64,000 nucleotides of DNA from a virus. Under the pieces are notes generated by a model. That model was not told where the DNA came from. It ran no database searches and saw only the letters and a list, made by a program, of their open reading frames with translations. Shown here piece by piece: positions 6,022 to 56,921 of the stretch. Numbering within the stretch: position 1 is the first letter of the stretch; each line of letters opens with the position of its first letter. Where the stretch lies: positions 35,489-99,488 of the IMG/VR virus record IMGVR_UViG_3300032296_002019. One strand, given 5' to 3'. Position numbers and translations under genes: made by a program.

Positions 6022-6822
6022 TTAAAAGATTTTAATTGCGTCTTTTATCACTGACAGTATGCTACTCTCTTGTAGAAGAGAGCTTTTAGGAGAATCATCT
6101 TGTGAAAAGTCAGATATACAGAATATTGAATCCATTAATTTATCTCCCTTAGGATTAAAATCAGCCCTAGGTGGAGTTTTAAAAGTTTTTGTGGCATCAA
6201 CATCCCAAGTCTTTATCCTGTCTTCCCTAAAGAACCTCCAACCTGGGAGGGCTTTTTTCTGAGGATTTTTATCTGCACTGACTGATTTACCTGATCCAAC
6301 CCAGGCACGTACATACTTTATACCCTTTTTAGATCCATATGCTACAGGCTGTACGTCTGTACGCCATCCTGGAGCCTCTTCTTCGTCCCCTTGATAGTAA
6401 AGCTTTACGAATCTCTTATTTGTTATTGCATCGCATATATCGTCTCCTTTGCCTCCTAGATTTCTTTTCTTAACTGTAGGGGGAGTAGTTGGAGGTTCTT
6501 TTTTAGTTTTACTCTTGGCAGTTTTAGGACCTACGTCAATAGTTCTAGATTTCTTTCCTAGTATATTCCAGTTAACTATTTTATCTTGTTGATATCTTTT
6601 TATTTCAGCTTTCTTACCTGCCTCTTTAGGAATCTCATAGGCTACTAAATATTTCTTTCCTTTTGTGTCTTCTACCTTGATAGCTTCTATGGTTTTCCAG
6701 CCTCTAGGAGAATCACTGTCGCCTTGATAATATACGGATACTTGAGAGCCAGAATCCAGCATTTTCTTAGCTGTGGCGTCATCAAGAGGGGCTTCTAATA
6801 GTAGTCTTAATAAATTTCTCAC
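6022..6822 (-). CDS. tandem WYL-domain protein
   Basis: Two repeats: VSVYYQGD..GWKTIEAIKV..YLVAY..RYQQDKI and VKLYYQGD..GWRTDVQPVAYG..YVRAW..GWRFFREDRIKTW; K/P/T linker; no HTH. Confidence 0.8.
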   Translation of the reverse strand: MRNLLRLLLEAPLDDATAKKMLDSGSQVSVYYQGDSDSPRGWKTIEAIKVEDTKGKKYLVAYEIPKEAGKKAEIKRYQQDKIVNWNILGKKSRTIDVGPKTAKSKTKKEPPTTPPTVKKRNLGGKGDDICDAITNKRFVKLYYQGDEEEAPGWRTDVQPVAYGSKKGIKYVRAWVGSGKSVSADKNPQKKALPGWRFFREDRIKTWDVDATKTFKTPPRADFNPKGDKLMDSIFCISDFSQDDSPKSSLLQESSILSVIKDAIKIF

Positions 6823-6825
6823 GTA

Positions 6826-6872
6826 TATAAATATCTTAGTACAAAGATAATCATTATACGTTATATATCAAA
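6826..6872 (-). promoter_or_regulatory. Bacteroidota-type promoter plus TATTTATA motif upstream of WYL operon
   Basis: TTTG(6872-6869)-N19-TATCTTTG(6849-6842); TATTTATA at 6833-6826. Confidence 0.75.
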
Positions 6873-7684
6873 TCTTTATAAAAATGGTAATGGCATACCC
6901 CTATCTTTTCAAAATATATATTCTTATGAGATGGGTCTCCTATCTTATGCATTTCTACCATATAGAGAAGATCTTCGAATTGGTCTTTTATTAAACAGTA
7001 TTTTTTTAGATCTTTAGTAGTTCTTCCTAGGTGGGTTTCGCAATCAAACTTAATATCAAAAGGCAGTTCCCAAGGCTTTATATTTTGATTCCGTGCCTTT
7101 TCTTGGTGATAAACAGAAGTTTTATACTCGATATCAGAACCGTAAATGCTATCAATATTAGTGATGTCAAGAATAAAAAAAGTAGTTTGAGGAGTGTAAA
7201 AGCCTGAATCAAACACTTCATAAGTTTTATGTAAATTCTTTTTTCCACCTGCTTTTAATATTGATTCATAACTAAATCCTGGTATATAATAAAACTCTGC
7301 CTCTTCTACTTCGGAATCTAGTATATCATCCGTAGATATAACATCATCCATGCTCTTCCATAAATATCTAACATCCGGTATATTATTCTTTACATAATTC
7401 AATATAGATTCCTCTAAGTCTATTGTACCGAACATATGTCCTTTATTTACATCTGACTCTAATATAATAGAGCTAGGGAATGATTTTAACCAGGTATTTT
7501 TAAAAGCATTTAATGCATGGTTAGATAGATCTGGGATTTTATTTACAGATAAAACTATATAGGGAAAATTTTTTATGAAGGATTCGTTGTATTGTAAAAA
7601 GAATTTAAGTTGTTCCCAACTATCTTCTTTTACTGTAGCTATTGTAGAAAAACAAGAAACGTTAACTAACGACCTCAGTTTCAT
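6854..7684 (-). CDS. putative glycosyltransferase-like protein (GT-A fold?)
   Basis: Last gene of GT island; NKGHMFG and LWKSMDDVI resemble GT-A elements; weak. Confidence 0.4.
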   Translation of the reverse strand: MKLRSLVNVSCFSTIATVKEDSWEQLKFFLQYNESFIKNFPYIVLSVNKIPDLSNHALNAFKNTWLKSFPSSIILESDVNKGHMFGTIDLEESILNYVKNNIPDVRYLWKSMDDVISTDDILDSEVEEAEFYYIPGFSYESILKAGGKKNLHKTYEVFDSGFYTPQTTFFILDITNIDSIYGSDIEYKTSVYHQEKARNQNIKPWELPFDIKFDCETHLGRTTKDLKKYCLIKDQFEDLLYMVEMHKIGDPSHKNIYFEKIGVCHYHFYKDLIYNV

Positions 7685-8510
7685 TTTTTAAAAATTGTGG
7701 GTATTGAACCATAAGAGATTTTATTACTTCTGGATACCTATCTATGGAAACTGTCTTATAGTTTATACCTAATCTTTTCAACACATCTTTTCCCTCTTTT
7801 AAAGATGTATTTATGTTATCCATAGAAGTTATATCTGGTCTATTAAACTCTGTATGGGCGAATGATTCTATCTTAGTTTTTACTTTCTCGGAGCCTCCTA
7901 AATAAGAGAAGTGCCACCCAGCATTTGGTATTCTCATGAAGGTGTTCCTATTATCTCTTAGGTATTGAGGACCATTGCTTTTAAAGAAATCTCCTGTGCA
8001 CATTACAGTTCCGTTCCAATCCCTATCAAATCCCTCCATTTGGCAATTCATGTAGTAATAATGAAAAAGGAGAGTTAGAGAGATAGCTTTACTTTTATGT
8101 TTTAAAAAAACATTACCATTCCTAACATAAGTAATAACTTCTGGATTAGGTATTTCATCTAGGTCTCCTACTAAAATTACATCAGAATCTTCCATCAGAT
8201 CTTGTGCATAAGTTATCCCTAATCTCTGTTGATTTTCTAATGTCCAAGATCCATCAGTTGGGGTATACCCATTTACCTTCTCAAACTTTAAATCCTCTAT
8301 AGATTGTTCTATAGGAAGGTATACTATCTTATCAATCCACTTTTGATATCTTTCTTTGTTTTGTTCAAAGAAGTACGGTTTAGGCTTCCCACTATGAGTG
8401 TAGTTTGATTCACATATAACAAACTTATCAACTACATCATATAACAACTTTAATCTAAACTCTAATAAATCTAATTCATTAAAAAAAGTAAAACAATCAA
8501 AGATTTTCAT
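7662..8510 (-). CDS. GT17-family beta-1,4-N-acetylglucosaminyltransferase-like protein
   Basis: DCFTFFNELDLLEFRL..VVDKFVICES..THSGKPK, ENQQR, GDLDEIP, GWHFSY..KIESFAHTE. Confidence 0.85.
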   Translation of the reverse strand: MKIFDCFTFFNELDLLEFRLKLLYDVVDKFVICESNYTHSGKPKPYFFEQNKERYQKWIDKIVYLPIEQSIEDLKFEKVNGYTPTDGSWTLENQQRLGITYAQDLMEDSDVILVGDLDEIPNPEVITYVRNGNVFLKHKSKAISLTLLFHYYYMNCQMEGFDRDWNGTVMCTGDFFKSNGPQYLRDNRNTFMRIPNAGWHFSYLGGSEKVKTKIESFAHTEFNRPDITSMDNINTSLKEGKDVLKRLGINYKTVSIDRYPEVIKSLMVQYPQFLKNETEVVS

Positions 8511-8514
8511 AACG

Positions 8515-9147
8515 TCACTTAAATTTAAAACCTGTATTTTTTTCTATAAAGGATTTATTTACTTCATGAGATTTCAATCCTGTTCTATCTATTTTTGAAT
8601 TATAAAAATGAAAGGCCATCCATTCTTTAGATTTTACTATGTAAATCACTTTCCAACAATCCGTAGGTACTGTCACTCCCCCTATTTTCTGTTTAGATCC
8701 CCATGAACCAGCCCACACTTTTACAGAATCATACTTCATAGACATTTCTCTAGTAAACTCTTCTAGATCCTTCCAATCTCCTCTATTCAAAGTAGGATGC
8801 TGTGGGGTCATGTTTGAAAAGAAAAAAGACTCCCTCATAGCTGTAGAATCACATCCTCCATCTGCTGCTGGAAAATTATGCCCTCTATCATACCCTGAGT
8901 TCAGGTAGTCCTTTTCCAAATTTGTATGTCGATACAATGTAGGATCTGGGACGAATTTATTGGTTCTAGGATACTTCTTTACGCAAGTTATATCTTTTTT
9001 TGTTACTACCCAATAAACTTTTTTAGGGTACTTTAAAACGGTATCAAAATCAGCTTGATACCTTTTATGTTTTATTAAAACAGTGTGTTGAGATGCTGCC
9101 TGTAATACTAAAAATACTGCTAGAAAAAATAAAGTAAAGCGTTTCAT
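8515..9147 (-). CDS. secreted DNA/RNA non-specific endonuclease (NucA/EndoG-like)
   Basis: Signal peptide MKRFTLFFLAVFLVLQAAS; YDRGH, SNMTPQ, LNRGDWKDLE motifs. Confidence 0.9.
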   Translation of the reverse strand: MKRFTLFFLAVFLVLQAASQHTVLIKHKRYQADFDTVLKYPKKVYWVVTKKDITCVKKYPRTNKFVPDPTLYRHTNLEKDYLNSGYDRGHNFPAADGGCDSTAMRESFFFSNMTPQHPTLNRGDWKDLEEFTREMSMKYDSVKVWAGSWGSKQKIGGVTVPTDCWKVIYIVKSKEWMAFHFYNSKIDRTGLKSHEVNKSFIEKNTGFKFK

Positions 9148-9881
9148 TATCTGTCTATTCTATAGTGGGTGAACAATCCTTCTCCGTGAGACACTACAAA
9201 GTTTTGTTCTTGCCACCATCCATCTATCTTTCCTTCCAAATCAACACCTTCCCCAGAGAAAGGGGATATCTTTTCTATGTAAAAATCCTTTTTATACATA
9301 CAAGGGTTGTTAGTTTGGTTGGCGTATCTAGAGTTGCAGTAAAACAATCCAGTGTAATCATCCTTAAATATATATTCAGGAAAATCTTTTTCTGGGGTTT
9401 CTCTCCAATGTACGCACTCAAATAAATGTTTGGGGCTGTCGAATTCGCGGTTCGCGAACTGCAAAGTGTATAGCGGCTCTCCTGGAACTCTTCTGCTTCT
9501 GTATTTTACTACATCCGCTTTATTAGATTCTATCATGTGCAGACCTCTAGTCAATTCGTCCAATACAGTAGGAAAGAAATCATCTATAATAATCCAATCA
9601 TTTTCTAGTAAAAGTATATTATCTGTTTTAGAGTTAGTAGCTAAGGTAGTCAAGGCTCTTCCTATACCAATATTAGTAGCGGAGAGTATATAGTCAACCC
9701 CATAATTTTCAGCTATCTCCCTATCAACATTACTACCCTCCTGTGCAAAAAGACATACGTCGTTAACTAAGTCAAGCAGTCCCGATCTCTTGTACGTATT
9801 TAAAGTGTTATTAAGTGTATTGTATGACTTCCAAGTCAGTATTCCTACTGACAGATTAAGCTTGTTCATTTTTATAATCAT
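9147..9881 (-). CDS. GT-A fold glycosyltransferase
   Basis: SVGILTW, NIGIGRA, ILLLENDW. Confidence 0.7.
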   Translation of the reverse strand: MIIKMNKLNLSVGILTWKSYNTLNNTLNTYKRSGLLDLVNDVCLFAQEGSNVDREIAENYGVDYILSATNIGIGRALTTLATNSKTDNILLLENDWIIIDDFFPTVLDELTRGLHMIESNKADVVKYRSRRVPGEPLYTLQFANREFDSPKHLFECVHWRETPEKDFPEYIFKDDYTGLFYCNSRYANQTNNPCMYKKDFYIEKISPFSGEGVDLEGKIDGWWQEQNFVVSHGEGLFTHYRIDR

Positions 9882-10455
9882 TTATAAAGTCTTCAAAGGA
9901 AATTACCCCCAACATGCCATTCCTATGAGAAACATATGTATTCCAATCTAAGCTATCGATATCTTTAAACTCTGTTAGAGTCTGGGCACCTTTCTTTACT
10001 ATTCCGCATCCCCAATCATGATCTACTACTTTTATGTCTAGATCCTCTCTTGTTCCTTTTAGTACAGCAATAGATTTCCATACATCACCAGTCCATGCTC
10101 CCCCATGATTATCTCTGACTTGATCTTTCTCTATTGTAGGTAAACAATCATGTACTACTATAACCCCTCCCTCATTTAGATGATTTAAGGAATTTTCTAT
10201 ATCTTTTAACACTTGTTCACTATGATGTAATCCATCTATAAAGATTATGTCAAACATTGTAGTATCATCTATAGACGCAAAATAAGAATCTGATGTGCCT
10301 ATATAATCACAGTATCCAGTTGGAGCTGGGTCCACAGCGTATTTATACTCAGCGTTAATTTTTGCACAGTTACTATTGTACTCCTGAACTCCTACTTCTA
10401 AATATCTTTTGTAATTATTTTGATCTACTAGATAATTTATTATATCCCATCTCAT
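9856..10455 (-). CDS. class I SAM-dependent methyltransferase (Methyltransf_24-like)
   Basis: YLEVGV, FDIIFIDGLH, LNEGGVIVVHD. Confidence 0.85.
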   Translation of the reverse strand: MRWDIINYLVDQNNYKRYLEVGVQEYNSNCAKINAEYKYAVDPAPTGYCDYIGTSDSYFASIDDTTMFDIIFIDGLHHSEQVLKDIENSLNHLNEGGVIVVHDCLPTIEKDQVRDNHGGAWTGDVWKSIAVLKGTREDLDIKVVDHDWGCGIVKKGAQTLTEFKDIDSLDWNTYVSHRNGMLGVISFEDFINDYKNEQA

Positions 10456-10458
10456 AAA

Positions 10459-11121
10459 TTATATTTTATATTTTTGATTGTAAAATTGCACGTCTCTAAT
10501 TTTTATAGAATCAAATATTGAATCATCGGATGTTGCACTCATTTTAGTTTGTATAGAACATCCTAATCCGTAATTAACTCTACCTTTACTTACAGTTTGA
10601 TGAAATATATAATCATCTCCACACCATACCAACATATCCTCTGGTATTGGAATATAATTATTTTTATTCATTACCATTAAAATTCCAAACCCCCATGTTC
10701 TTTGATTTAAAATAAAAAGAGCTAGTTCATCTATAACGAACTTTTCTGGTTTTTCTACTTGAGATATATAAGGCTGGAAGGCTCCTACTATTCCCATATT
10801 ATCTAAATCAAGTTGTGCCAGTCCCCAGAACAAATTACTCGGTATAGTTATGTCATCATTTAGAATAGCTATATAATCTTGAGTAGCCATGCTAACTCCA
10901 AGATTCCATGATGGATTCACATATAGATTTTTATTTTCTTTGTGTACCCTAAGCTTTGGATTGTCTACAACAAAATCAGAATAAGTTTTACTTTTATCAG
11001 TGTTATCTATAAGAATAACTTCATGTATATGAATATCTTGATATAATATATCTAGAAGTGTATTTAGAATGTCGGGTCTTCTAAATAGAGTTGGGATAAT
11101 TATAGAGAATTTTCTTTCCAT
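10459..11121 (-). CDS. GT2-family glycosyltransferase
   Basis: FSIIIPT, EVILIDN, SWNLG, ILNDDI, CGDD. Confidence 0.85.
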   Translation of the reverse strand: MERKFSIIIPTLFRRPDILNTLLDILYQDIHIHEVILIDNTDKSKTYSDFVVDNPKLRVHKENKNLYVNPSWNLGVSMATQDYIAILNDDITIPSNLFWGLAQLDLDNMGIVGAFQPYISQVEKPEKFVIDELALFILNQRTWGFGILMVMNKNNYIPIPEDMLVWCGDDYIFHQTVSKGRVNYGLGCSIQTKMSATSDDSIFDSIKIRDVQFYNQKYKI

Positions 11122-12050
11122 TCAATATATTTTTCTAATATTCTCCCTACTCTTTTAATTTGAGTGTGATGCTCCATAGTTTTGTTATAACCATTTAAAG
11201 CTATCCGTTCTCTTTCTTCAGAACCTTCAGGACTTAGGTAATAGTTTATCTTAGATATGCACTCCCCCAAATTATCATAATAAACTATATCTTCTCCTTC
11301 AATAAACAAATCATTTATTTTAGTATGTTCTGGTAACCTATCCGTAATCACTAATCTTCCGCAAGCCATTCCTTCAAACACTCTTCTAGTTATCTCCTTC
11401 CATCTACTGTTTTGAATAACTACTAATCCGCTATTTAAAAAATCTGAGTATTCGCTACCTACAAGTCCATTCTTGTTTATAAACTTGTGAGGCATTATGT
11501 TGCTTAGGTAGTCCATTAAATGAGACCCGCCATGTCCTCTAGTAGACCTGGCTTTAGGAAGATCATCAAATGGAGTAAACCCATCATAAGGCTTGTGTAT
11601 TTTAGTATCAGCAAAATGAGTCCACCATAATACGTTACACCCTTTCTCTTTGTACTTAAGATAAGAATCATGAGCTGGAGTCAATATCAAATCAAACTTA
11701 TGCGCTTTTACAGAGTTTCTTTCAAAGTTCTGAGGATCATCTCCGGACTCCATAACCCAAAAAGCATTTGGTATACTTTTTTTATCTAGAATTGGAGAAT
11801 CAAATCTACCCCAGTCCATATAAATAACCATCTCTGGACAGAAAGTTCCTGATTTATTTTCTTCTATTAAGAGATGTATTCCTGAGTCTGTGTAGTTGTC
11901 ATACATGTCAAATAGAGAATATATCTTAACCTCACAACCTATTTCTTTAAATTGTTCTACTATTGACAATGGAGTATTCCACACATCAGTAGGTCTGTGA
12001 GCAAATATAAAAGCTACTCTGTTTAATATATTAGTACTCCCCATTTGCAC
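11100..12050 (-). CDS. GT-B glycosyltransferase (CgeB/Glyco_trans_1_2-like)
   Basis: DDPQ, RRVFEGMACGRLVITD, ERERIALNG..HT..RV. Confidence 0.85.
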   Translation of the reverse strand: MQMGSTNILNRVAFIFAHRPTDVWNTPLSIVEQFKEIGCEVKIYSLFDMYDNYTDSGIHLLIEENKSGTFCPEMVIYMDWGRFDSPILDKKSIPNAFWVMESGDDPQNFERNSVKAHKFDLILTPAHDSYLKYKEKGCNVLWWTHFADTKIHKPYDGFTPFDDLPKARSTRGHGGSHLMDYLSNIMPHKFINKNGLVGSEYSDFLNSGLVVIQNSRWKEITRRVFEGMACGRLVITDRLPEHTKINDLFIEGEDIVYYDNLGECISKINYYLSPEGSEERERIALNGYNKTMEHHTQIKRVGRILEKYIEWKENSL

Positions 12051-12964
12051 TAAAGATTTAAAAAATAATTAAACTTCTGCATTACTGTCTCCGGTTTAAA
12101 CTTTTCTACCAATGGTTTTACATTGTAGTCCTTTTTTTCTATAGACAGTAATATATTGTACAATTCGTTTGGATTTTCATAATAAAACCCTTTATCTTTT
12201 AGAATGTACATTTGATTTTTATCTCTGCACTGTAAGTTAGTAACTACAGGTTTATTCTGATGCAGGAACTCAGACACAGCTAAACCAAAAGATTCTCCTT
12301 CTGATCTGCCATGAATCATGGCATCACATGTATTTATGAAAGCTGTCTTAGTGTGCAAATCAGTTGTAGGCTCTATATAGACAATTCTAGGATGTTGGCA
12401 TCTTAACATGTTAGTATTTAACAATAAGAACCAATATCCCTGTTCTGCCAACTTACAAAGTACATCTGCAAGATACGGTATATCAAATTGTGCGTTTCCT
12501 CCATGCCTTCCAAAAACTATAGCTTCTTTAGGGATTCCTATGTAATCTCTAAAATCTTCTTTTACATCAGGTAGAGTAACTATGTAAGGTAGAAAATCTA
12601 TATTATGTCTATTACCTAGCCACTCACTGATAGCTATGTATACGTCTCCATGTTTGTCAGATCCCTCAAACACAGCATGTACTATATTTTTTGAACGTGG
12701 AAATAATATGCCATCATAATGTCCGGCTTTTTCTAGAAATGCAACATCTATTTTATAGTTTCCTACTTCACTAAAAGAATTGTATAGTATAACTCTATCT
12801 TGAAATCTATTCCTAAATTTATCTAAAGCAGCTAGATCTGAATTGGCAGGAGCAAATACATAAGATGTGTTTCCTAGTATAGCTTCATTATAATGTGCAT
12901 AATCATACAAAGATACTTCTGTCCCTCTTATTCCAAGTTGATTGGAATGAAATCCTACGTTCAT
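12050..12964 (-). CDS. GT-B (GT4-like) glycosyltransferase
   Basis: RGTEVSLYDYA; CDAMIHGRSEGESFGLAVSEF. Confidence 0.8.
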   Translation of the reverse strand: MNVGFHSNQLGIRGTEVSLYDYAHYNEAILGNTSYVFAPANSDLAALDKFRNRFQDRVILYNSFSEVGNYKIDVAFLEKAGHYDGILFPRSKNIVHAVFEGSDKHGDVYIAISEWLGNRHNIDFLPYIVTLPDVKEDFRDYIGIPKEAIVFGRHGGNAQFDIPYLADVLCKLAEQGYWFLLLNTNMLRCQHPRIVYIEPTTDLHTKTAFINTCDAMIHGRSEGESFGLAVSEFLHQNKPVVTNLQCRDKNQMYILKDKGFYYENPNELYNILLSIEKKDYNVKPLVEKFKPETVMQKFNYFLNL

Positions 12965-13584
12965 ATAGTTTCGTATAAATTATTTTGAGCCTCCTGTCTT
13001 TTTATATCTTTAATATGCAACAAACAATAATCTTCAGTTTCAAAAGGTAATAAACTATATACGTTGTGCCCTACTAATATTTCATGCACTTTATTTTGCC
13101 AGTATATCTCTGGTTTGTTTATTACTATTCTAGTTTGCGGATCTGGGTAGTTAACATATCCTTTATCATTTACACTCCATCCCCACCTATCTATATGTTG
13201 TTGAGTTAATCCTTGAACAACATTTATTCTTGGGACCGCAAACATCTCCACATCTTGATTATTATATAAGATTTCTTTTATAGTAAGAAGAAGATTCTCA
13301 TGAACATTTTCATCTGCATCTATAAAGAATATGTACTCTTTTGTACATTTAGACTTAGCGAAGTTTTTGTGTTTAGAAAAATCTCCTTCTAAATGATTGT
13401 AGTGTAATGACACTCTATCTTTATACTCCTCAAGTATTTTTATTGTTGAAGGCTCATCAGAATAATCATCTACTATTACTATTTCATCTTCAGGTTGAAT
13501 ATGCTTTAACAACCTTTCTAGTAAAGGTTTTATATATACTGCTCCTTCATTGTGAGTAGTTATACAATAAGATATGCTAACCAT
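12961..13584 (-). CDS. GT2-family glycosyltransferase
   Basis: ISYCITTHNE, EIVIVDDYS, FFIDADE, YPDPQTRI, KVHE. Confidence 0.88.
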   Translation of the reverse strand: MVSISYCITTHNEGAVYIKPLLERLLKHIQPEDEIVIVDDYSDEPSTIKILEEYKDRVSLHYNHLEGDFSKHKNFAKSKCTKEYIFFIDADENVHENLLLTIKEILYNNQDVEMFAVPRINVVQGLTQQHIDRWGWSVNDKGYVNYPDPQTRIVINKPEIYWQNKVHEILVGHNVYSLLPFETEDYCLLHIKDIKRQEAQNNLYETI

Positions 13585-13585
13585 T

Positions 13586-14353
13586 TTATACTAATTTATA
13601 GAATTGTTTTAATTGTTCGTTTGTATCAAAGGTATTAATTAAAGAAACATGTTTTTCATTATCTTTATTAAAACATATGCAATCTTCTTTTGGAAGAGGA
13701 TTATCGTCCGATGGTCTGTATACAATATAATTAAGAGATTTTAAAAGCTCTATTACTTTTTGGTCTTTCTCGATTTCCCTGTAGTTCTCAAGCATCATCC
13801 AGGGCTTACACCTATTCAAAGTGTCTAACATCCCAGTTAGAGCTTCTAGTTCATAATTTTGAACATCCATCTTTATGACGTCAATATCAAGACCTAAAGA
13901 GTCAAAAGGTACTACTTTTATTTCCTCGTTACCTTCTTCTCCTTCTACAGCTATGCCTCTACCTCCATAGTTATCGGTACCATCTTTCTCTCTGTACTTG
14001 TCTAAGGAACACATTTTAACAGTAGAATTAGAATTGCCTAGTCCCAATCTGAACTGTTCTACCTTTCTTGTAGAATCGTTGTAAAGAATGTTAGTAGTTA
14101 GAATATTATATATAAGTGCCTGGGGCTCAAACGCATACACTTTTTTAGAAAACTTAGCCAGTCCAATAGTATGAAATCCTATGTTAGCTCCTGCATCTAA
14201 AACTACATCTGTTTCTTTTAATAGTTTTGAATAGAGTTGATACATGTGTATCTCCCAAAACCCTAAAGTATTTATGTATCTGCCAATTAAGTCTTCTAAA
14301 ATTACTACAAAAGATCCGTAACCTTTATCTGGAGTCTGCGCTAATGTTATCAT
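13586..14353 (-). CDS. FkbM-family methyltransferase
   Basis: VLDAGANIGFHT, VYAFEP, IDVIKMDVQNYE. Confidence 0.9.
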   Translation of the reverse strand: MITLAQTPDKGYGSFVVILEDLIGRYINTLGFWEIHMYQLYSKLLKETDVVLDAGANIGFHTIGLAKFSKKVYAFEPQALIYNILTTNILYNDSTRKVEQFRLGLGNSNSTVKMCSLDKYREKDGTDNYGGRGIAVEGEEGNEEIKVVPFDSLGLDIDVIKMDVQNYELEALTGMLDTLNRCKPWMMLENYREIEKDQKVIELLKSLNYIVYRPSDDNPLPKEDCICFNKDNEKHVSLINTFDTNEQLKQFYKLV

Positions 14354-14793
14354 ATTAGTTGTGCTGCTTCTAATGCTCTTGAGAAGTATTCTTTATCAAA
14401 ATGAAGAACGTTTTTCATATCAGTTTTGTATTTGTGATATGTACCGTCTGGTTTCCTAAACCTTTCTTTTTCTTCTTCTTTTACTGGTACCTGGGGTGCA
14501 AACGCCCATTTCCAATCATCTTTTGATGTTCCGTCTGGAAATATCATCCCTATGCCTTCTTTAGTTATGGTGGTAGGATACCAAGTGAACCCATCAGAAT
14601 CTACATACTTTATATCTCTAAATAAATTAGGAATCATAGATTCATAAGAAGCCACAGCCTCTGTGTTGGCTAATAAGAGAGTATTGGTAGTGAATCCACA
14701 TTGAAGACAATCCCAACTTATAATACCATCAGAATGTCTCTCATAACATAACGGGCTATTGCATTTTCTGCAACTTACTAATTGATCTTGCAT
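14350..14793 (-). CDS. zinc-ribbon hypothetical protein
   Basis: CRKC..C..CLQCG. Confidence 0.65.
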   Translation of the reverse strand: MQDQLVSCRKCNSPLCYERHSDGIISWDCLQCGFTTNTLLLANTEAVASYESMIPNLFRDIKYVDSDGFTWYPTTITKEGIGMIFPDGTSKDDWKWAFAPQVPVKEEEKERFRKPDGTYHKYKTDMKNVLHFDKEYFSRALEAAQLI

Positions 14794-14794
14794 T

Positions 14795-15205
14795 TTAATC
14801 TAATAATTGTTTTTTTGTATTTTCTGGAGTTGTCTGAGTTAATGTGCTATTTGTAAAGTAATATCCAAATCCTTCTGGGTAGTTCGTATAGTGCCAACAT
14901 CCCATTTTATCATTCCATACAGTGGCATTTATATGCGTAGTATTAGATCCACTAGTAATAGTAATAATAGGATTGTTTGTTACAGTTATAGATCCTGATA
15001 AAGGGAATTGATCCTTAGCATTTTGTTGATACCAATCATCACAGTCATCTGGATCTTCTTCAAAATCAAGATCAAGATTAAGATCAGGGTCTTCCACTTC
15101 TTCCAGCACTTCCTTAAGTCTATCCCACTGTTTTGGAGTCGGATGAAATTCAGGACACGCTTCTGTAAAACCTTTTAACCATATTACAAAATCTCTTGGG
15201 CTCAT
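14795..15205 (-). CDS. hypothetical protein
   Basis: Helical N-terminus, acidic tract, S/T-rich C-terminus with two SGS. Confidence 0.6.
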   Translation of the reverse strand: MSPRDFVIWLKGFTEACPEFHPTPKQWDRLKEVLEEVEDPDLNLDLDFEEDPDDCDDWYQQNAKDQFPLSGSITVTNNPIITITSGSNTTHINATVWNDKMGCWHYTNYPEGFGYYFTNSTLTQTTPENTKKQLLD

Positions 15206-16476
15206 CCAGTTATAGTTTTAAGTTTTGGGAGATTGAGAGTTTTAGGTAAGCTTATCTTTGGAACATTCTTTTCTAATATCTCAGACAACCTTTCTACCAT
15301 TTTATCAAAACTATATTGAGATCTTGATACATGTCCTTGTCTCTTTGCGTTATCTATGAACTTATTGTAGTTCTCATAAACATTCTTCAAAGTGTTTTCC
15401 ACTGACTTACCGTCTGCCTTAAACCAACTTGCTTCTTTTAAAAGAAACTGATTGCTTGCAGATTGATGCAGCTTATCTACTTTACCTTCTACAAATACGT
15501 TAAACTCTTCTCTTAAGAAGTCCGTATGTCCACTAAATGGAGAGGTTATTATAGGCTTACTAGAAGCTGCTGAAAACTCCAGGTAAGGTCTTCCAAATCC
15601 TTCATTACCTACTAAAGCAAATGCTTTTACTTTAGGATGGTTGTATAGCTCATTCATCTCTTCATCTGTAAGCTCTCCATATACTAAGTAAATGTTAGGA
15701 AGATCTCCATCAACAGTCCTTCTAATATTATCTATTGCATCTAGTATGTACTCTTCTTCTATTATACTAAAGCCAGCCAAACTTGTTTTTAACAACAAAG
15801 CAGGTCTCTTACTCTTATCTTTAAAAGCAGATAAGAAAGATTTTATAAGAGTAGTTAATTGTTTTCTATCTTCTCCTAACTCTCCGGTCAACCAATGACC
15901 GACTGATAAGAAACAGAACTCTTCTTTAACTTCTGATAGATCAAACTTTGAGGTCTCTAACCTTTTGTATTTGTTTGTATCAACTCCTTCGAACAAAACT
16001 TCTATAGGTTTCTCTAATTTTAGAAGACCTAAACTTTGTTTTGTTTGATTATCGGTTTTCTCAAAAGAAGTTTGCTCAGCTACTTTCTTTACGAAATCAG
16101 AAGATACAATATTGAAAGTCATTTTGTTCAAACCTTCCAAACACTCTGCTGGTAGAATGGTAGTTTCAACTAAAGCAGACACTCCTATATTGACTTTGCC
16201 TACTGGTTGAAATTCATTAGATACAGTTACTTGTATCCATACATCAGGCTGTCTATTCAACCCTTCTGCTAAAATCCTATCTAATAGATCTAAATCTTCT
16301 GGGATTTCTCTATCTAAGGCTCCGAAAGGACATTCTCCCCATTTCTGCGATAGGATTTTGATATCCCACTCTTCCCCTTTTAATTTAATTAAAGCTTTTA
16401 CAAAATCTCTGGACCTTGCTCCGTATCCGCTTACTGTGTCTATAGGACAAGAAACTACTGCTAATAATTTATTCAT
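15202..16476 (-). CDS. GT4-family glycosyltransferase
   Basis: SGYGARSR, RKQL, EGFGRPYLEF. Confidence 0.88.
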   Translation of the reverse strand: MNKLLAVVSCPIDTVSGYGARSRDFVKALIKLKGEEWDIKILSQKWGECPFGALDREIPEDLDLLDRILAEGLNRQPDVWIQVTVSNEFQPVGKVNIGVSALVETTILPAECLEGLNKMTFNIVSSDFVKKVAEQTSFEKTDNQTKQSLGLLKLEKPIEVLFEGVDTNKYKRLETSKFDLSEVKEEFCFLSVGHWLTGELGEDRKQLTTLIKSFLSAFKDKSKRPALLLKTSLAGFSIIEEEYILDAIDNIRRTVDGDLPNIYLVYGELTDEEMNELYNHPKVKAFALVGNEGFGRPYLEFSAASSKPIITSPFSGHTDFLREEFNVFVEGKVDKLHQSASNQFLLKEASWFKADGKSVENTLKNVYENYNKFIDNAKRQGHVSRSQYSFDKMVERLSEILEKNVPKISLPKTLNLPKLKTITG

Positions 16477-16485
16477 AACGTATTA

Positions 16486-17916
16486 TTACAAAGATATATA
16501 ATGTTTTAATGTTTTTAAAGGCCTTTCTTCTATTTTTCTAATCTTGTATTTTTTCTTAGGTTTAAAAACTTCCAGAGTTTCATTTACTGTATCTATAAAA
16601 GTATTTGACATAGCTTCAGCTGTCATCATAGATTCTTTAGATGTAACCCACTCTCTTCCTAACCCACCTCTTCTATCTCTCTCATCTTGTCCTAAATTAT
16701 ACACATCTAAGATAGCTTTAGCGACATCTCTAAAATCAGCTCTGTCATCTGATATATAAGGGGTGGGAGGAGATCCTTGAATGCTTATACCAGATGGGAA
16801 TACAGGAATGGCCCAATCTCCACATTTCTTATGTCTTCCTAAATGGTTAGTGCAGAAAGACTCATCAAATTTAATCCACTCTCCATTCTCATCCTCAAAT
16901 CTCATTTGATCTTGCATACCCCCTGTTACAGTAGCTATGATCATTTTTCCACACATCATAGATTCTGTTAATGATAATCCCCATCCTTCGTTAGAAGATA
17001 CCAGAATTGTAGCATCAATAGAATTGTACAGCAGGTTCATCTTTTCCGCACTAAGACCTAAATTAGAAAATATAACCTGATTTTTTCTTTCTCCTAAGAA
17101 CAATTCTATTACTACTGGTAGATCTGTTCCGTTATCATCTACTTTATGAGTATGCAATACTAAACAGCATTTATCTGCTTTTTCTTTAGGGAGCTTATCT
17201 AAGAAGAACCTAAAAGCTAAAATAGTATCCGGTATAGATTTTCTTCTTATGTTCCTACTATTGAAAAATAAAACAAAATCATAATCTTTCTTTCCAAGAA
17301 GTTCAGATCTAAATTCTTTTACTCTATCGTCATTTTTATCTATAGGGAAAAAGATATTATGATTTATACCATGAGGAAAATACTTAATAATTTTCTCATC
17401 AGCATAATCTCCCAAAACTACCTTGTTAAGTATTTCTGTTTGTTTTGAGATAGCTAAAAGAGTATCACAAGATCTATAGAAATTTTTATTGTATAAAGGA
17501 GCTGGTTCACAATCCCAGATGTTTATATAAATCATTGGAATTTTTTGCCTTATCTCATGCTCTATTCTAAACAACCAATCATAATATCTTGGATCTGTTA
17601 TAAAAACTATAGCATCTGGATTCTCTAACTGTAGTAGGTACCTTATCATAGCTGGATTGCCATATCCGTTAGTTGGATACAATACTACGGAGGAATCAGG
17701 AATACCTGCTATTTCATTTGTCGATTGGGACAAATCCATCCTTGTATTCTTTTCTGGATGTTCTATAGCCCCTCCTATACAAACGTAGTTAAATACATGT
17801 GAAGTTCCTAATACTATCTCCCTAGATACTGTAGCAATCCCTGAAAAAAACCTGATGTCATCTCCTATGAAAAGGATCTTTTTTCTGTCTTCTCTTTTTA
17901 TATAACCTGGCTTCAT
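16486..17916 (-). CDS. GT4-family glycosyltransferase
   Basis: SGIATV, PHGIN, RNIRRK, SSNEGWGLSLTESMMCGK. Confidence 0.9.
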   Translation of the reverse strand: MKPGYIKREDRKKILFIGDDIRFFSGIATVSREIVLGTSHVFNYVCIGGAIEHPEKNTRMDLSQSTNEIAGIPDSSVVLYPTNGYGNPAMIRYLLQLENPDAIVFITDPRYYDWLFRIEHEIRQKIPMIYINIWDCEPAPLYNKNFYRSCDTLLAISKQTEILNKVVLGDYADEKIIKYFPHGINHNIFFPIDKNDDRVKEFRSELLGKKDYDFVLFFNSRNIRRKSIPDTILAFRFFLDKLPKEKADKCCLVLHTHKVDDNGTDLPVVIELFLGERKNQVIFSNLGLSAEKMNLLYNSIDATILVSSNEGWGLSLTESMMCGKMIIATVTGGMQDQMRFEDENGEWIKFDESFCTNHLGRHKKCGDWAIPVFPSGISIQGSPPTPYISDDRADFRDVAKAILDVYNLGQDERDRRGGLGREWVTSKESMMTAEAMSNTFIDTVNETLEVFKPKKKYKIRKIEERPLKTLKHYISL

Positions 17917-17939: not shown

Positions 17940-18134
17940 TTAAAGACTTCCGCTTGTTGCTAGTTTATTGTAAGTCAACATTTTAACTTGAAATTCCGGA
18001 TCCGTAAGATATAAGTGGATGGTTCTGTTTACAAATTTCTGTAATGATAACCCTGTCCTAGCACTTTCTACCTTGAAATTTTCAGATAGATCTTTGTGTA
18101 TTTTAACACTTGTCAATTTTAATTTATCTTTCAT
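17940..18134 (-). CDS. small ribbon-helix-helix-like DNA-binding protein
   Basis: Probable start MKDKLKLTSVKIHKDL at 18134; strand-helix-helix pattern; TATTTATA motifs at 18137-18144 and 18161-18168 upstream. Confidence 0.6.
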   Translation of the reverse strand: MKDKLKLTSVKIHKDLSENFKVESARTGLSLQKFVNRTIHLYLTDPEFQVKMLTYNKLATSGSL

Positions 18135-18192
18135 ACTATAAATAATATATAATTTGTATATATAAATATACAGTATTTGGGAAAAAATAAGA

Positions 18193-19137
18193 TTAAATAG
18201 TATTTTTTTTATCACAAAGATCGGGTCTATCTTTAAAAGGACAGAACCTACAGTTATTATTTGAAAATACTTTTGTATGGATCTTTTCTTTGGCAGTACC
18301 GTCTACATTAAAACATTCTTTTATAAAGTTAATTAGACGTTGTTCTGCTTGATGCACCTTACTTTTTCCATTAGCAGGCTCATGAACTTGGATTCTAGAC
18401 TGAGGGAAGTCCGCATTTTCATACAGCTTTCTCTTCAATATCCTAAATCTAGGAACAATCTTGGACTCATCCACTCCAAACTGTTTAGAAAAAAACTTTT
18501 TATATAAGAGAATCTGAGATTGTTTAATCTCATCTTTCTTCTCGTAATCCTTCCAGCCTTTAGTAGATGTCTTAAAATCTTCTATAAAAATAGTCCCTTC
18601 AGTTTTATCTTTTAAAACTAAGTCCACATATCCCTGGAATAAAAATACATCTTCTGTATCTCTTATTTCTGTTAAAATAGGGATTTCCATGCCCAATAAC
18701 TCAAGATCTCTGGTAGAGAAGTATGCTACTCTTTTCTTCTTAAAATGATCTAGGATTTGAATTCCGTCTTCATAGAACTCTGCCATCTCTTCTTTAGTAG
18801 AAAAATGGTTTCCTCCATTATTAGAAACTTCTTTAACGTACTCATCTCTGAATACCTTCTCAAAATGTTTCTCCATATCAAAAGCATCTGAAGCTTTTAC
18901 AGATTCTTTGAATAGGATTTCCAGGTACTTCTGTAGGGTCTCATGTATGGCGGTTCCAAAAACAGTATTTATACTTGCTGTAAATAAGTAATTACCCTTA
19001 GCATAAGTCATATACCATCTATGAGGACAAGACTCATAAACAGAGTATTGAGAGAAGGATATTTGTTTTTGCCCTTCTCTCTTTTCTTTTCTTATCTTAG
19101 GAGATATACTTTCTGATAAAGCGATTGCTTCTTTCAT
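18193..19137 (-). CDS. PD-(D/E)XK (RecB/Cas4-like) nuclease
   Basis: SFSQY..CP, FGTAIHE, GYVDLV..IEDFKT, C-terminal CRFCPF..C. Confidence 0.88.
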   Translation of the reverse strand: MKEAIALSESISPKIRKEKREGQKQISFSQYSVYESCPHRWYMTYAKGNYLFTASINTVFGTAIHETLQKYLEILFKESVKASDAFDMEKHFEKVFRDEYVKEVSNNGGNHFSTKEEMAEFYEDGIQILDHFKKKRVAYFSTRDLELLGMEIPILTEIRDTEDVFLFQGYVDLVLKDKTEGTIFIEDFKTSTKGWKDYEKKDEIKQSQILLYKKFFSKQFGVDESKIVPRFRILKRKLYENADFPQSRIQVHEPANGKSKVHQAEQRLINFIKECFNVDGTAKEKIHTKVFSNNNCRFCPFKDRPDLCDKKNTI

Positions 19138-21248: not shown

Positions 21249-21545
21249 TTAACCTTTTACAATTGAAAGAATCTCTACTTCTCTACAAACATAATACTCT
21301 TCCTCATCAACGATGATTTGAGTTACTACGGCTTTAGGTACAATTACCACATCTCCTACTTCTACTTTCATAGGATAGTAATTTCCCATGTGTGGATTGA
21401 ACATACCTTCTCCACGATCTACTACTTCAAAATAATTTGATTTTTCTCTACCAGTGTCAGGGACTATAATCCCCCCTACCATTTTGTCTTCTGCGTCTAT
21501 CTTTTTTAAGATGACTTTGTCATGTAATGCAACTAATGTACTCAT
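21249..21545 (-). CDS. groES: co-chaperonin GroES
   Basis: LHDKVILK, mobile loop VGGIIVPDT, VEVGDVV, REVEILSIV; directly upstream of groEL. Confidence 0.92.
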   Translation of the reverse strand: MSTLVALHDKVILKKIDAEDKMVGGIIVPDTGREKSNYFEVVDRGEGMFNPHMGNYYPMKVEVGDVVIVPKAVVTQIIVDEEEYYVCREVEILSIVKG

Positions 21546-22195
21546 AATTTATTTTTGTTATTTTTACAGTTATTAAAATGGTACTTTATCATACCAGATG
21601 CTCCCCCTATTAATAAACAGTGCGGGCATTGTATTTTTCTTTGAGGCGAATGTACTCTATTTTTATGAGACTCTTTCATTTTTTTTATGGATTCCTCAGA
21701 ATGTTTTTTTCCGTACAAAGGATGCTTTTCTCCAGCTTGAACACCTTTAGTAGCTTTGGAAGCTTTTATTTTACTATCTGGTTTTTTCCAATATTCTTTT
21801 AGGCTATTAGACAATTTTTTTAAAACCTCAGGATTACCCATCGCTTTTCTAGTTTTTTCACTTATCTCTTTTATTTTCTCCTTTGTGTGTTTATAACCAC
21901 TTTCAACCCCTCTAGTACCAGATAACCTTTCATTTACTAGATTCCCAGTTCCATGTTTTATGGTTCCGTATTTCTTTATATACACTTCTTCTAGTCGCAG
22001 TGATTCTTCTCTTGTCAAATTTTGTGCCAAAATATCCACTTCAAAACCTCCACACTTTTTTACTATGTCTAACCAATTGGTATTTCTCCTATTATTAATA
22101 CTTTCATAGGCTCTTTTTAGAGTACCTTGTCCCACATAAAATACTTCGTTAGTATCTTTTCTTCTATGTTGATACACCACATAATCGTTATTCAT
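21542..22195 (-). CDS. free-standing GIY-YIG homing endonuclease with NUMOD3 repeats
   Basis: YVVYQH..FYVGQG..R; E..YI..YG..LVN; GYKHTKE and HPLYGKKHSEESIKKM; likely start at 22195 with TATTTATA at 22207-22214. Confidence 0.85.
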   Translation of the reverse strand: MNNDYVVYQHRRKDTNEVFYVGQGTLKRAYESINNRRNTNWLDIVKKCGGFEVDILAQNLTREESLRLEEVYIKKYGTIKHGTGNLVNERLSGTRGVESGYKHTKEKIKEISEKTRKAMGNPEVLKKLSNSLKEYWKKPDSKIKASKATKGVQAGEKHPLYGKKHSEESIKKMKESHKNRVHSPQRKIQCPHCLLIGGASGMIKYHFNNCKNNKNKL

Positions 22196-22255
22196 AATAT
22201 TTTTATTATAAATAGTGAAAATTTGTGCATGCCCTTCTATCAAATATTGTGTTTT

Positions 22256-25482: not shown

Positions 25483-25508
25483 TTTTGTTATTTGAACAAA
25501 TATACAAA

Positions 25509-25682
25509 TTATTGTTTTACTTCCAAATTTTTATTTCCTTTTACCCATTTTGGAATATAAGGACATTCTTTGCATTTAGCACCGCAACAAACCATTCTTC
25601 GAGAAAGGTAGAGAGCGGTGAATACTATGTACCCAGTCCGCTCATCTATGTAGTAATCTTTACCTTCCTCTAAGTTCTTCAT
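25509..25682 (-). CDS. small Cys-rich protein (DUF5522-like)
   Basis: DYYID..GYIVFTALYL.RR..CCGAKCKECPY; start at 25682 overlaps the RNR stop. Confidence 0.75.
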   Translation of the reverse strand: MKNLEEGKDYYIDERTGYIVFTALYLSRRMVCCGAKCKECPYIPKWVKGNKNLEVKQ

Positions 25683-29000: not shown

Positions 29001-30041
29001 TTAATAATTGTTCAATGTTGAAAATATATTAGTCCACATATCAAGATTTGGAATAGAGTCTCCCATTTTATCTTGATGATATAACTTCATAAAATCAAAC
29101 TTTTTAAGAATAGGCGGCTTCGTATGATAACTGTTTAGGATATCCAAAGATAACTCTTCTGATATATTAGGTTCTTTAATGTTCATTATTTTGTAAAAAA
29201 TTTCTACTTGCTTTTGAACATTCAAAATCCTTTGATATAAAACAGATTTCTTGGGCGGATTAGAGCAGACCTCATAAATGTCCTCTAATGTTTTCCTTTC
29301 CGGCTTAGATAAAAATTCAAAGAGTTTCACAGCAGTCTTATCTCCTACACCATTAACTCCAGGAACATTATCTGAGGTGTCTCCTACTAAAGCTTTATAC
29401 AGAAGAAAATTATCTGGGTGTATTCCGAAATCATCCACGACGTTTTGTATTCCATATATTTTTTTCTTAGTAGGACTAAAAACATTTACTCTATCATTTA
29501 CAAGCTGCATAAAATCATTGTCAGACGACATTACAAAAACTTTAGAATCATCATAAGTTTTGTAGATCTGACCGCATAAATACCCAATTACATCATCAGC
29601 TTCCAATTTATCAAAGGACATTAAAGTAACAGGCAGATACTGAAGATAATCTATTAACCTTGTTATTTGGTTATATTGAGCATCTTCTTCTTCATTTTTA
29701 TTTTGGAAGGACTTATAGTTCATGATCCTTCCTGTATCTCTGTTTGCTTTATACTGACTGTAAAGATATTTCCTGTTTACCGACCCGCCTTCACCGTCAA
29801 AGACAATTACTACGCGAGTCGGTGTTAACAGTTTGATTGCATGCCCAAGAGACTTAAGAAACCCCACCAAACCTCCTATGTCCACTCCCACTATGTTAAC
29901 TCTGTTAACAACAGCAAAGCTTCTAAGGAATGTGTTCATTCCATCTATAATAAGAACTTTGCTATTCCAGTGTAGGTTAGGTGTTTTTTCTTCTTTGTTT
30001 ATTTTAGAAAAAATATCTAATAGCCTATCTTTATTCATCAC
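29001..30041 (-). CDS. 5'-3' exonuclease / flap endonuclease (RNase H-like)
   Basis: LIIDG, VFDG, YKANR, EADDVI, SSDNDF, GDTSDNVPGVNGVGDKTA. Confidence 0.93.
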   Translation of the reverse strand: MMNKDRLLDIFSKINKEEKTPNLHWNSKVLIIDGMNTFLRSFAVVNRVNIVGVDIGGLVGFLKSLGHAIKLLTPTRVVIVFDGEGGSVNRKYLYSQYKANRDTGRIMNYKSFQNKNEEEDAQYNQITRLIDYLQYLPVTLMSFDKLEADDVIGYLCGQIYKTYDDSKVFVMSSDNDFMQLVNDRVNVFSPTKKKIYGIQNVVDDFGIHPDNFLLYKALVGDTSDNVPGVNGVGDKTAVKLFEFLSKPERKTLEDIYEVCSNPPKKSVLYQRILNVQKQVEIFYKIMNIKEPNISEELSLDILNSYHTKPPILKKFDFMKLYHQDKMGDSIPNLDMWTNIFSTLNNY

Positions 30042-31977: not shown

Positions 31978-32001
31978 AACTTGTTTTTTTTAAGTGAATA
32001 A

Positions 32002-32032
32002 CAAAGATAAAAATTGCAGGTTATCCTGCAAA
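32002..32032 (-). promoter_or_regulatory. Bacteroidota-type promoter for ssb-recA-exo-helicase operon
   Basis: TTTG(32032-32029)-N19-TATCTTTG(32009-32002). Confidence 0.8.
32009..32031 (-). terminator. hairpin terminator superimposed on the ssb promoter
   Basis: TTGCAGG-ATAA-CCTGCAA followed by TTTTT. Confidence 0.55.
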
Positions 32033-32039
32033 ATATTTT

Positions 32040-32480: not shown

Positions 32481-32510
32481 ATATAAATATCTAATAAAAG
32501 TGCTAAAATT

Positions 32511-33848: not shown

Positions 33849-33864
33849 TTACAAAACCTTTAGA

Positions 33865-56883: not shown

Positions 56884-56921
56884 TTATTATAAATATTTTA
56901 TCTGTATGTTATTCTACAAAG

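Follow-up and report, generated by a model that had tools for sequence, protein, structure and literature searches.

A glycosyltransferase island in an Immutovirus-like aquatic myovirus and its possible role in protein O-glycosylation

What does a bacteriophage decorate when it carries a single run of genes filled with glycosyltransferases (GTs)? The question is raised by a 64,000-nucleotide stretch of DNA, here called the window, that comprises bases 35489-99488 of the 99,488-bp IMG/VR virus contig IMGVR_UViG_3300032296_002019 (G000; CheckV completeness 57%). Window positions 6854-17916 hold a single co-oriented island of about 11 kb, with all genes on the - strand and tightly packed or overlapping, that encodes seven supported GTs, one weak GT2-like protein and two methyltransferases (FkbM and Methyltransf_24). 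A sequence-only reading had described this island, which is confirmed here, as a cytoplasmic assembly line that builds an O-glycan on virion proteins from host nucleoside diphosphate (NDP) sugars, and had paired it with a Ser/Thr-rich collagen-like fibre. The assembly line is supported, but the specific pairing with the collagen is not, and the analysis thus corrects the idea that the island is tied to collagen fibres. With moderate confidence, the island is read here as a late-expressed cytoplasmic system for O-glycosylation of proteins, presumably those of the virion, for which the collagen is no more than one possible acceptor. Islands of this kind recur across the lineage of Immutovirus-like aquatic myoviruses, and this one is the local version.

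The part of the island shared across the lineage lies at its upstream end and consists of the following features, together with a small acidic protein:

18161-18169, - strand: the promoter-like motif ATATTTATA that heads the island, between the nuclease gene and the small ribbon-helix-helix (RHH)-like gene
17940-18134, - strand: small RHH-like gene that opens the operon, about 64 aa from an internal ATG, with a strand-helix-helix pattern by eye
16486-17916, - strand: GT476, a core GT-B enzyme, GT4-like and of the retaining type (Pfam Glycos_transf_1, 9e-11; AlphaFold predicted local distance difference test (pLDDT) 88)
15202-16476, - strand: GT424, a core GT-B enzyme and distant GT476 paralogue (weak GT1 Pfam match; AlphaFold pLDDT 91, clear GT-B)
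14795-15205, - strand: 136-aa acidic protein without a Pfam match, with homologues in eight loci and G006
14350-14793, - strand: core 147-aa protein with an N-terminal Cys-rich (CxxC) Zn-ribbon-like segment
12961-13584, - strand: core 207-aa GT2 (Pfam GT2, 4e-18), SgtA/GmaR/SunS-like

A scan of IMG/VR with GT476 yields 67 loci at 39-76% identity, 51 of which have GT424 adjacent to it, and the conserved core of small RHH-like gene, GT476, GT424, 147-aa protein and 207-aa GT2 is found in about 45-60 contigs. The gene order recurs as well: a PD-(D/E)XK nuclease, the small gene, GT476, GT424, sometimes a small acidic protein, the 147-aa protein and the GT2. The nearest cultured relatives are Flavobacterium phage vB_FspM_immuto (immuto; genus Immutovirus, 160 kb), which carries the orthologous core and six GTs, and Microcystis phage Mel-JY01 (190 kb), for which the literature search found no paper. 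Rhodothermus phage RM378 is a more remote cultured relative and shares GT476 only. The core is kept in both Flavobacterium and Microcystis phages, and GT476 in a Rhodothermus phage as well, which favours an acceptor intrinsic to the phage. Eight relatives were fetched whole, among them G002 and G006 (both 100% complete), G003 (with terminal repeats) and G005 (72% complete). In Mel-JY01, the GT476 orthologue (L003, record 83441-84932) is annotated as two open reading frames (ORFs) of 190 and 302 aa, and so is split or frameshifted, and no orthologue of the 147-aa protein is detectable.

The most informative member of the core is the 207-aa GT2. Clostridioides difficile SgtA, a 358-aa enzyme with a GT domain at residues 1-260, puts beta-O-linked N-acetylglucosamine (O-GlcNAc) directly on Thr in the collagen-like repeats of BclA3, and its sequence was retrieved via the primer sequence printed in the same paper (PMC7157674). 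Across its entire 207 aa, the core GT2 is 30% identical to SgtA (BLASTP 3e-13), covering SgtA residues 1-176, and SgtA aligns to a profile of 28 core-GT2 sequences with an hhalign probability of 98.6% (7e-16). Among all ORFs of nine phage genomes, SgtA matches solely the core-GT2 orthologue group, and in a control comparison the island's other GT2 (10459-11121) reaches a probability of 1%. The best PDB match of the profile is GmaR (1.6e-15), the Listeria flagellin O-GlcNAc transferase, followed by SunS (3e-9), with polysaccharide GT2s at about 1e-8. Residues D89, D91, E92, H167 and E168 are invariant in the 28 orthologues and align to the DADD/DADE and IHE motifs of SgtA and GmaR. By these comparisons, the core GT2 is specifically related to enzymes that glycosylate proteins directly, with a similarity beyond that of generic GT2s. 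Since the core GT2 is SgtA/GmaR-like, the core would encode an enzyme of the direct-protein-glycosylation type, and its likeness to SgtA, GmaR and SunS favours a protein acceptor.

The two GT4-like enzymes point in a related direction. The best PDB match of GT476 is the chlorovirus NY-2A protein B736L (3oy2), both by sequence (5e-11) and by fold (4e-15), and the same structure is the best fold match of GT424 (5e-16), at an identity of just 13-17% between B736L and the two core enzymes. Below B736L, the fold ranking of both enzymes holds generic GT4s, including GlgM, sucrose-phosphate synthase, BshA and MshA, and a search of GT476 against viral folds in BFVD returns generic viral GT-B proteins, none of them diagnostic. 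GT476 and GT424 are distant paralogues, as judged from an hhalign probability of 96.7% between them, and both show the E-x7-E spacing with each Glu invariant (E310/E318 in GT476, E292/E300 in GT424). The GtfA/GtfB pair, in which an O-GlcNAc transferase and a chaperone together serve serine-rich repeat adhesins, was considered as a model for the two adjacent proteins; neither GtfA nor GtfB is among the best PDB matches of the GT476 and GT424 models, and because both phage enzymes keep the two invariant Glu residues, neither resembles an inactive chaperone.

The remaining core proteins may serve the enzymes. The 147-aa protein is kept in 47-49 loci, usually directly upstream of the core GT2, and its look-alikes in the ESM Atlas are all viral hypothetical proteins. 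It is a candidate partner or adaptor of the core GT2, whose missing C-terminal part would bind the acceptor; the adjacent 147-aa protein might supply this function. The small protein that heads the island here and in most relatives looks like an RHH regulator, an assignment made by visual inspection of the translation alone, and its orthologues upstream of GT476 in relatives are 41-89% identical. The ORF listed for it, 91 aa from a GTG at 17940-18215 (-), probably starts at the internal ATG near 18134.

The motif in front of the island hints at when it is expressed. The sequence ATATTTAT[A/T] (ATATTTATW) matches 14 times in the window, each time on the coding (-) strand (e.g., 6826-6834, 18161-18169, 32482-32490, 47453-47461 and 56888-56896). 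Ten of the 14 sites are immediately followed by tail, baseplate or fibre genes, and the replication genes at 19-32 kb have no such site in front of them. The motif is found 170-253 nt upstream of the GT476 orthologue in G001, G002, G003, G005, G006 and immuto, and in immuto it also precedes genes annotated as terminase, tail spike, tail fibre, structural protein, sheath and GroES. From this gene context, the motif is probably the late promoter element of the lineage.

The rest of the window fits a tailed phage of this lineage. Its GC content is about 33% and all credible genes are on the - strand. PHROGs matches identify a replication block (family-A DNA polymerase, ribonucleotide reductase, DnaB-like helicase, exonuclease, UvsX-like recombinase and single-stranded DNA-binding protein) and a contractile-tail block (baseplate hub, sheath, baseplate-wedge connector and tail-fibre-assembly-like protein); a phage GroEL is also encoded, and the capsid module is not on the contig. 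Several non-structural genes have a TAnnTTTG sequence upstream (e.g., TATATTTG, TATCTTTG, TACTTTTG), at 25483-25681, 31978-32039, 33849-33874 and 6823-6853. TAnnTTTG is the Bacteroidota -7 promoter consensus, and these examples hint at a Bacteroidota host with host-type early promoters. Directly after the island, a WYL-domain protein (6022-6822, -) has both a TAnnTTTG-like motif and ATATTTATA upstream.

Downstream of the core, the island gives way to a hypervariable arm of 9-16 kb that differs between relatives. In the window, the FkbM gene and the genes that follow the core GT2 are:

13586-14353, - strand: FkbM-family S-adenosylmethionine (SAM) methyltransferase (Pfam 6e-17; NCBIfam fkbM_fam 3e-22, above cut-off)
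12050-12964, - strand: probable GT-B, clade-specific, without a Pfam match, recognized by ESM Atlas features
11100-12050, - strand: CgeB-like GT-B (Glyco_trans_1_2, PF13524; Pfam 1.4e-19), clade-specific
10459-11121, - strand: GT2, clade-specific and not SgtA-like (Pfam 7e-12; genome scan 2e-13)
9856-10455, - strand: Methyltransf_24-type SAM methyltransferase (Pfam 8e-11)
9147-9881, - strand: weak GT2-like protein, unconfirmed as a GT (Pfam GT2 20.6 bits against a cut-off of 23.3)
8515-9147, - strand: DNA/RNA non-specific (NS type) endonuclease (Pfam 1e-37) with a signal-peptide-like hydrophobic N-terminus (Kyte-Doolittle 1.81)
7662-8510, - strand: GT17-family glycosyltransferase (Pfam Glyco_transf_17, PF04724, 6e-30)
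6854-7684, - strand: conserved phage protein, earlier taken as a possible ninth GT

The genes at 6854-12964 and the FkbM gene are confined to the two to six closest loci; the gene at 12050-12964 is found in the five closest loci only, a clear FkbM orthologue in G001 only, and homologues of the GT17 gene in L006, L007 and the collagen-less G006. For the product of 12050-12964, the ESM Atlas gives scores of 0.97-1.0 to viral clusters in which 20-70% of members have PF00534, and there is a weak NCBIfam match to GlcN_PG_synth, a GT4-type synthase (2e-5, far under the cut-off). Where eight to nine GTs and two methyltransferases had been counted from sequence, seven GTs and both methyltransferases hold up and the gene at 9147-9881 is sub-threshold, with no significant hhalign match to the core-GT2 profile either. 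The ninth candidate, 6854-7684, is dropped: nothing was found for it in Pfam, PHROGs, NCBIfam or the PDB, the last searched with the single sequence and a 28-sequence profile, and hhalign shows no similarity to a GT-A profile. Its family comprises 128 homologues at 38-73% identity, all from phages and none with a Pfam domain, and the invariant residues H83, D114, H253, H265 and H267 suggest a possible metal-dependent enzyme, so far undescribed, at the island's edge. The earlier statement that the GTs lack transmembrane (TM) segments is borne out, as none of the island's GTs and methyltransferases contains a hydrophobic 19-mer that exceeds 1.6 on the Kyte-Doolittle scale. The NS endonuclease, which the sequence-only reading had left unmentioned, is kept in the closest relatives, is of a secreted type that is unusual for a lytic phage, and is probably unrelated to glycan synthesis.

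The corresponding arms of four relatives contain:

immuto: more GTs, two WecE-type aminotransferases, an acetyltransferase, an epimerase and a methyltransferase
G002: three GT2s, GT10, DUF5672, three GDP-mannose-dehydratase-like enzymes and DegT
G003: two GT2s, two GT1s, methyltransferases, PhyH dioxygenases, WbqC and a hexapeptide transferase
G006: four GT2s, GT11, GT17, DUF5672, DUF3431 and four dehydratase/epimerase-like enzymes

The families reported for the islands of G002, G003 and G006 do not include PF13524. Homing-endonuclease genes of the NUMOD3 and GIY-YIG types occur in the window at 21542-22243 (-), between the GroES and DNA polymerase genes, and also inside the glycan islands of G003 and G006; they could assist the shuffling of the variable arm.

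The collagen-like fibre that had been proposed as the partner of the island is the following:

58746-64000, - strand: Gly-Ser/Thr collagen-like fibre ORF, 5' open and running off the contig, at least 1750 aa; candidate acceptor

The ORF contains 702 residues in Gly-X-Y runs, in line with the roughly 700 first estimated, with X and Y 72% Ser and 24% Thr (96% Ser plus Thr) and with Pfam Collagen matches. It lies within the tail-fibre module and adjoins the tail-fibre-assembly-like gene. Collagens were sought in relatives by protein-level Gly-X-Y scanning and Pfam Collagen, as a strict DNA pattern of six Gly-Ser/Thr triplets missed the Mel-JY01 collagen. Ser/Thr collagens are present in four genomes: G000, G001 (three ORFs with 570, 948 and 1059 Gly-X-Y residues), G010 and Mel-JY01 (606). 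No collagen match was found in 21 other core-bearing contigs, including four that are at least 90% complete (G002, G003, G004 and G006), and immuto has a single 18-residue Gly-X-Y run and no collagen-like gene. Nonetheless, G002, G003, G004, G006 and immuto all carry the core and 9-16 kb of further GT and sugar-tailoring genes. Comparing islands with collagens across related phages was the check that the sequence-only reading had itself suggested, and it had named islands kept without collagens as evidence against the pairing; large islands without collagen are what the relatives show. The island therefore does not rely on collagen, and it is not collagen-specific. Both the collagen and this form of the variable arm characterize a single small clade, in which their co-occurrence is inseparable from common descent, and the fibre is a plausible acceptor within that clade. 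Ser/Thr-rich ORFs, a usual feature of fibre proteins, turn up in almost every relative and do not discriminate between hypotheses.

From these pieces, a tentative order of events can be drawn. Late in infection, the SgtA/GmaR-like GT2 would place a first sugar onto Ser/Thr residues of newly made phage proteins during their folding in the cytoplasm. A conserved core glycan would then be built by GT476 and GT424, the two GT4 enzymes; the clade-specific GT-B, GT2 and GT17 enzymes would extend this glycan, and the FkbM and Methyltransf_24 enzymes may add O-methyl caps to terminal sugars. The donors would be uridine and guanosine diphosphate (UDP/GDP) sugars of the host, because there is no sugar-nucleotide pathway on the 57%-complete contig; the absence of an NDP-sugar epimerase or dehydratase from its 99 kb agrees with what was first read from the window. 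The acceptors are most likely Ser/Thr-rich virion fibre proteins, of which the Gly-Ser/Thr collagen fibre, with its hundreds of Ser/Thr sites, is the most obvious candidate in this clade. Thr glycosylation stabilizes the proline-poor collagen helices of Riftia cuticle collagen, and Bacillus BclA is O-glycosylated on its collagen-like region. By analogy with these two precedents, a role of glycosylation in fibre stability is plausible.

Four other accounts compete with virion glycosylation. A closely related one is that the island's very purpose is glycosylation of the proline-free Gly-Ser/Thr triple helix, which it would stabilize or camouflage as in BclA-type collagens, so that island and collagen co-evolve. 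The clade with this exact arm (G000, G001 and G010) does have giant Gly-Ser/Thr collagens, the CgeB-like GT (PF13524) is seen in this clade only, and the core GT2 is related to an enzyme whose substrate is a collagen-like repeat; however, the collagen-free contigs and immuto have islands of similar size, Mel-JY01 has a collagen but only the core genes in common with G000, island and collagen lie about 41 kb apart, and their co-occurrence amounts to one or two evolutionary events that cannot be told from shared ancestry. We regard this dedicated role as quite improbable. Remodelling of the host envelope is an unlikely explanation too, if one to be taken seriously. Here the soluble GTs would act on undecaprenyl-linked intermediates of O-antigen, capsule or general O-glycosylation, borrow the host's priming enzyme, flippase and ligase, and alter the surface of the infected cell, with superinfection exclusion or avoidance of grazers and other phages as the benefit. 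The gene content resembles that of O-antigen or capsule clusters minus the export genes, O-antigen GTs normally lack TM segments too, and relatives add GT10/GT11 fucosyltransferases, GDP-mannose-dehydratase-like enzymes, aminotransferases and acetyltransferases. This is also the customary interpretation of such blocks in cyanophage papers (PMC12801897). Yet the core is kept across phages of at least two host phyla with differing envelope glycans, its GT2 is nearest to direct protein GTs and not to polymer GT2s, its promoter motif is common to virion genes, and a lytic phage would probably have little time to rebuild a surface polymer. As for export, the lack of a flippase, polymerase or priming transferase noted for the window extends to the 99-kb contig, which encodes no polytopic membrane protein; no ORF in G000, G002, G003 or G006 has more than four hydrophobic segments, no family of these three kinds is among those reported for the G002, G003 and G006 islands, and none was found in complete relatives.

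A target in DNA, with the GTs building glycans on modified genome bases as a defence against restriction, is extremely improbable. Phage GTs can make multi-sugar glycans on DNA with 5-hydroxymethylcytosine (5hmC) or 5-hydroxycytosine (5hoC) (10.1101/2023.12.21.572611; PMC13326640), the island adjoins replication genes, and PHROGs labels the family of the Methyltransf_24 gene 'DNA methyltransferase'. Against this, liquid chromatography with ultraviolet and mass-spectrometric detection of virion DNA from immuto, which has the orthologous core, showed canonical dA, dC and dT, dG fully replaced by the non-glycosylated 7-(formylamino)methyl-7-deazaguanine (fdPreQ1), and no glycosylated nucleoside was reported (10.1101/2023.04.13.536721). 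Known routes to glycosylated pyrimidines need a thymidylate-synthase homologue or a methyltransferase together with TET (10.1101/2023.12.21.572611; PMC13326640). The thymidylate-synthase family PF00303 is absent from G001, G002, G003 and G006, and the sole homologue on G000 (contig 29504-30568, -; L146:9504-10568), upstream of the window, is a canonical ThyA of about 354 aa with extra segments that passes NCBIfam equivalog cut-offs and has PCH and ...LGLPFNIASY motifs. DNA is thus an unlikely target because the immuto nucleosides are unglycosylated and thymidylate-synthase homologues are absent or canonical ThyA. In addition, neither methyltransferase has a DNA-methyltransferase catalytic motif ([DNS]PP[YFWH] was searched in FkbM), and the best PDB fold matches of GT476 and GT424 include no T4-type DNA GTs. 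PDB searches with the two methyltransferases gave generic matches or none. No Tet_JBP match was found on G000, but control genomes gave none either, which leaves this result little weight. The last account, a soluble or storage glycan or glycoconjugate (a compatible solute or oligosaccharide) made as metabolic reprogramming and without a macromolecular acceptor, is very doubtful. It could draw on the GT4 fold neighbours GlgM, sucrose-phosphate synthase, BshA and MshA, which use small acceptors, but these are generic and B736L, a viral protein, ranks above them. Up to about nine GTs in a hypervariable set with methyl-capping enzymes are typical of surface glycans rather than of metabolites, and the SgtA/GmaR-like GT2 argues for a protein acceptor.

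Several observations weigh against the favoured reading of virion protein glycosylation. The core GT2 ends at residue 207 and lacks the C-terminal domain of SgtA, GmaR and SunS, and G005 keeps GT476, GT424 and the 147-aa protein but has no GT2 orthologue. The island adjoins replication genes (PD-(D/E)XK nuclease, GroEL and DNA polymerase); the sheath gene is some 27 kb away and the collagen gene about 41 kb. Its late expression is deduced from the genes that share the motif, and glycosylation of virions in this lineage is so far suggested by genes alone. Soluble GT2 and GT4 enzymes also serve lipid-linked acceptors at the inner face of the membrane, so that a lack of TM segments would also fit a host-glycan target, and the acceptor of B736L is itself unknown (PMC9614988). 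As a separate observation, G005 (the IMG/VR contig of L069; 173,677 bp, GC 22%) is the sole fetched relative without an SgtA-like GT2 and also the sole one without a Ser/Thr-rich ORF (at least 200 aa, Ser plus Thr at least 22%), an anecdotal coincidence in a single genome that is 72% complete.

A broader form of virion glycosylation may be put forward more tentatively, as a possibility that we would not yet call probable: a group-wide 'phage glycocalyx'. A minimal SgtA-like GT2, possibly guided by the 147-aa protein, and two B736L-like GT4s would make a conserved core O-glycan, strain-specific enzymes would decorate it with fucose, amino sugars or O-methyl caps, and in this clade the product would coat giant proline-free Gly-Ser/Thr collagens. 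If this is true, glycan coats would be a common and diversifying trait of environmental phages, with bearing on adsorption, particle stability, grazing and aggregation, and on how 'auxiliary metabolic' GT genes in viromes are interpreted. In aquatic phages, GT-rich islands are commonly taken, without evidence, as modifiers of the host surface or of DNA. A testable alternative is offered here for a widespread lineage, represented by 67 IMG/VR loci and three cultured relatives (immuto, Mel-JY01 and, for GT476 only, RM378), and because immuto is culturable and has the same core, a direct test is possible. GT-rich blocks in aquatic myoviruses and virion glycosylation in mycobacteriophages were already known. 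New for this lineage are the syntenic core, the placing of the core GT2 in the SgtA/GmaR group, the link to a late motif, the use of immuto nucleosides against the DNA interpretation, and the negative result on collagen specificity.

Among known systems, polysaccharide clusters that depend on Wzx/Wzy or ABC transporters differ, since no polytopic priming transferase, flippase or transporter, polymerase or ligase is found in G000, G002, G003 and G006. T4-type DNA glucosylation (alpha/beta-GT) and 5hoC arabinosylation in RB69 (PMC13326640) likewise use phage-encoded soluble GT-B enzymes near replication genes, but here there is no hydroxymethylase or thymidylate-synthase homologue of the 5hoC-synthase type, and the relative immuto has canonical pyrimidines. 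Marine cyanomyoviruses (S-SCSM2R with 13 GTs, P-SSM2 and S-SCSM1) carry similarly large soluble sets of GT2, GT4, GT10 and GT11 enzymes and nucleotide-sugar enzymes without export machinery, their function being unproven (PMC12801897). Unlike the island, these 'cell-wall synthesis and modification' genes are interpreted as modifiers of the host surface or DNA, and the parts of the source consulted describe no syntenic core, SgtA-like enzyme or link to a late motif (PMC12801897). The 'Moraphage' lineage, another large aquatic phage lineage with four core GT orthogroups (PMC12619734), was considered as well, and nothing links it to the present one.

A functional parallel among tailed phages is found in mycobacteriophages, which glycosylate their own capsid and tail-tube proteins with phage-encoded GTs (Freeman et al. 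2023, cited in PMC12619734) and are the only experimentally shown precedent for virion glycosylation in bacteriophages that our search found. According to PMC12619734, their glycans lie at the C-termini of capsid and tail-tube proteins, whereas the island described here has seven to eight GTs beside replication genes; in comparison with the mycobacteriophage arrangement, it stands outside the structural block yet has the promoter-like motif of the structural genes. SgtA/BclA3, GmaR and SunS share with the core GT2 a soluble GT-A catalytic domain with DADE and HE motifs, and as with BclA3 there is a Ser/Thr-rich collagen-like protein in the same genome. The phage enzyme differs in having no C-terminal domain, in not being adjacent to the collagen gene and in being kept in many phages without collagen, and, compared with SgtA/BclA3, it is embedded in a far larger set of GTs and methyltransferases.

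The overall design also has a parallel in capsid glycosylation by chloroviruses, which encode soluble cytoplasmic GTs (PBCV-1 A064R and A111/114R; NY-2A B736L, PBCV-1 A546L) and methyltransferases. Chloroviruses differ in their eukaryotic host and in the N-linkage of their glycans to the major capsid protein, while the phage GT4s are 13-17% identical to B736L and the phage side is known from genes. The capsid protein of chloroviruses carries a conserved core glycan whose decorations differ from strain to strain (PMC9614988), and this combination of a conserved glycan core with virus-specific decoration parallels the gene core and variable arm of the phages. If the proposed phage glycocalyx exists, it would be the bacterial-virus counterpart of these conserved-core, variable-decoration glycans.

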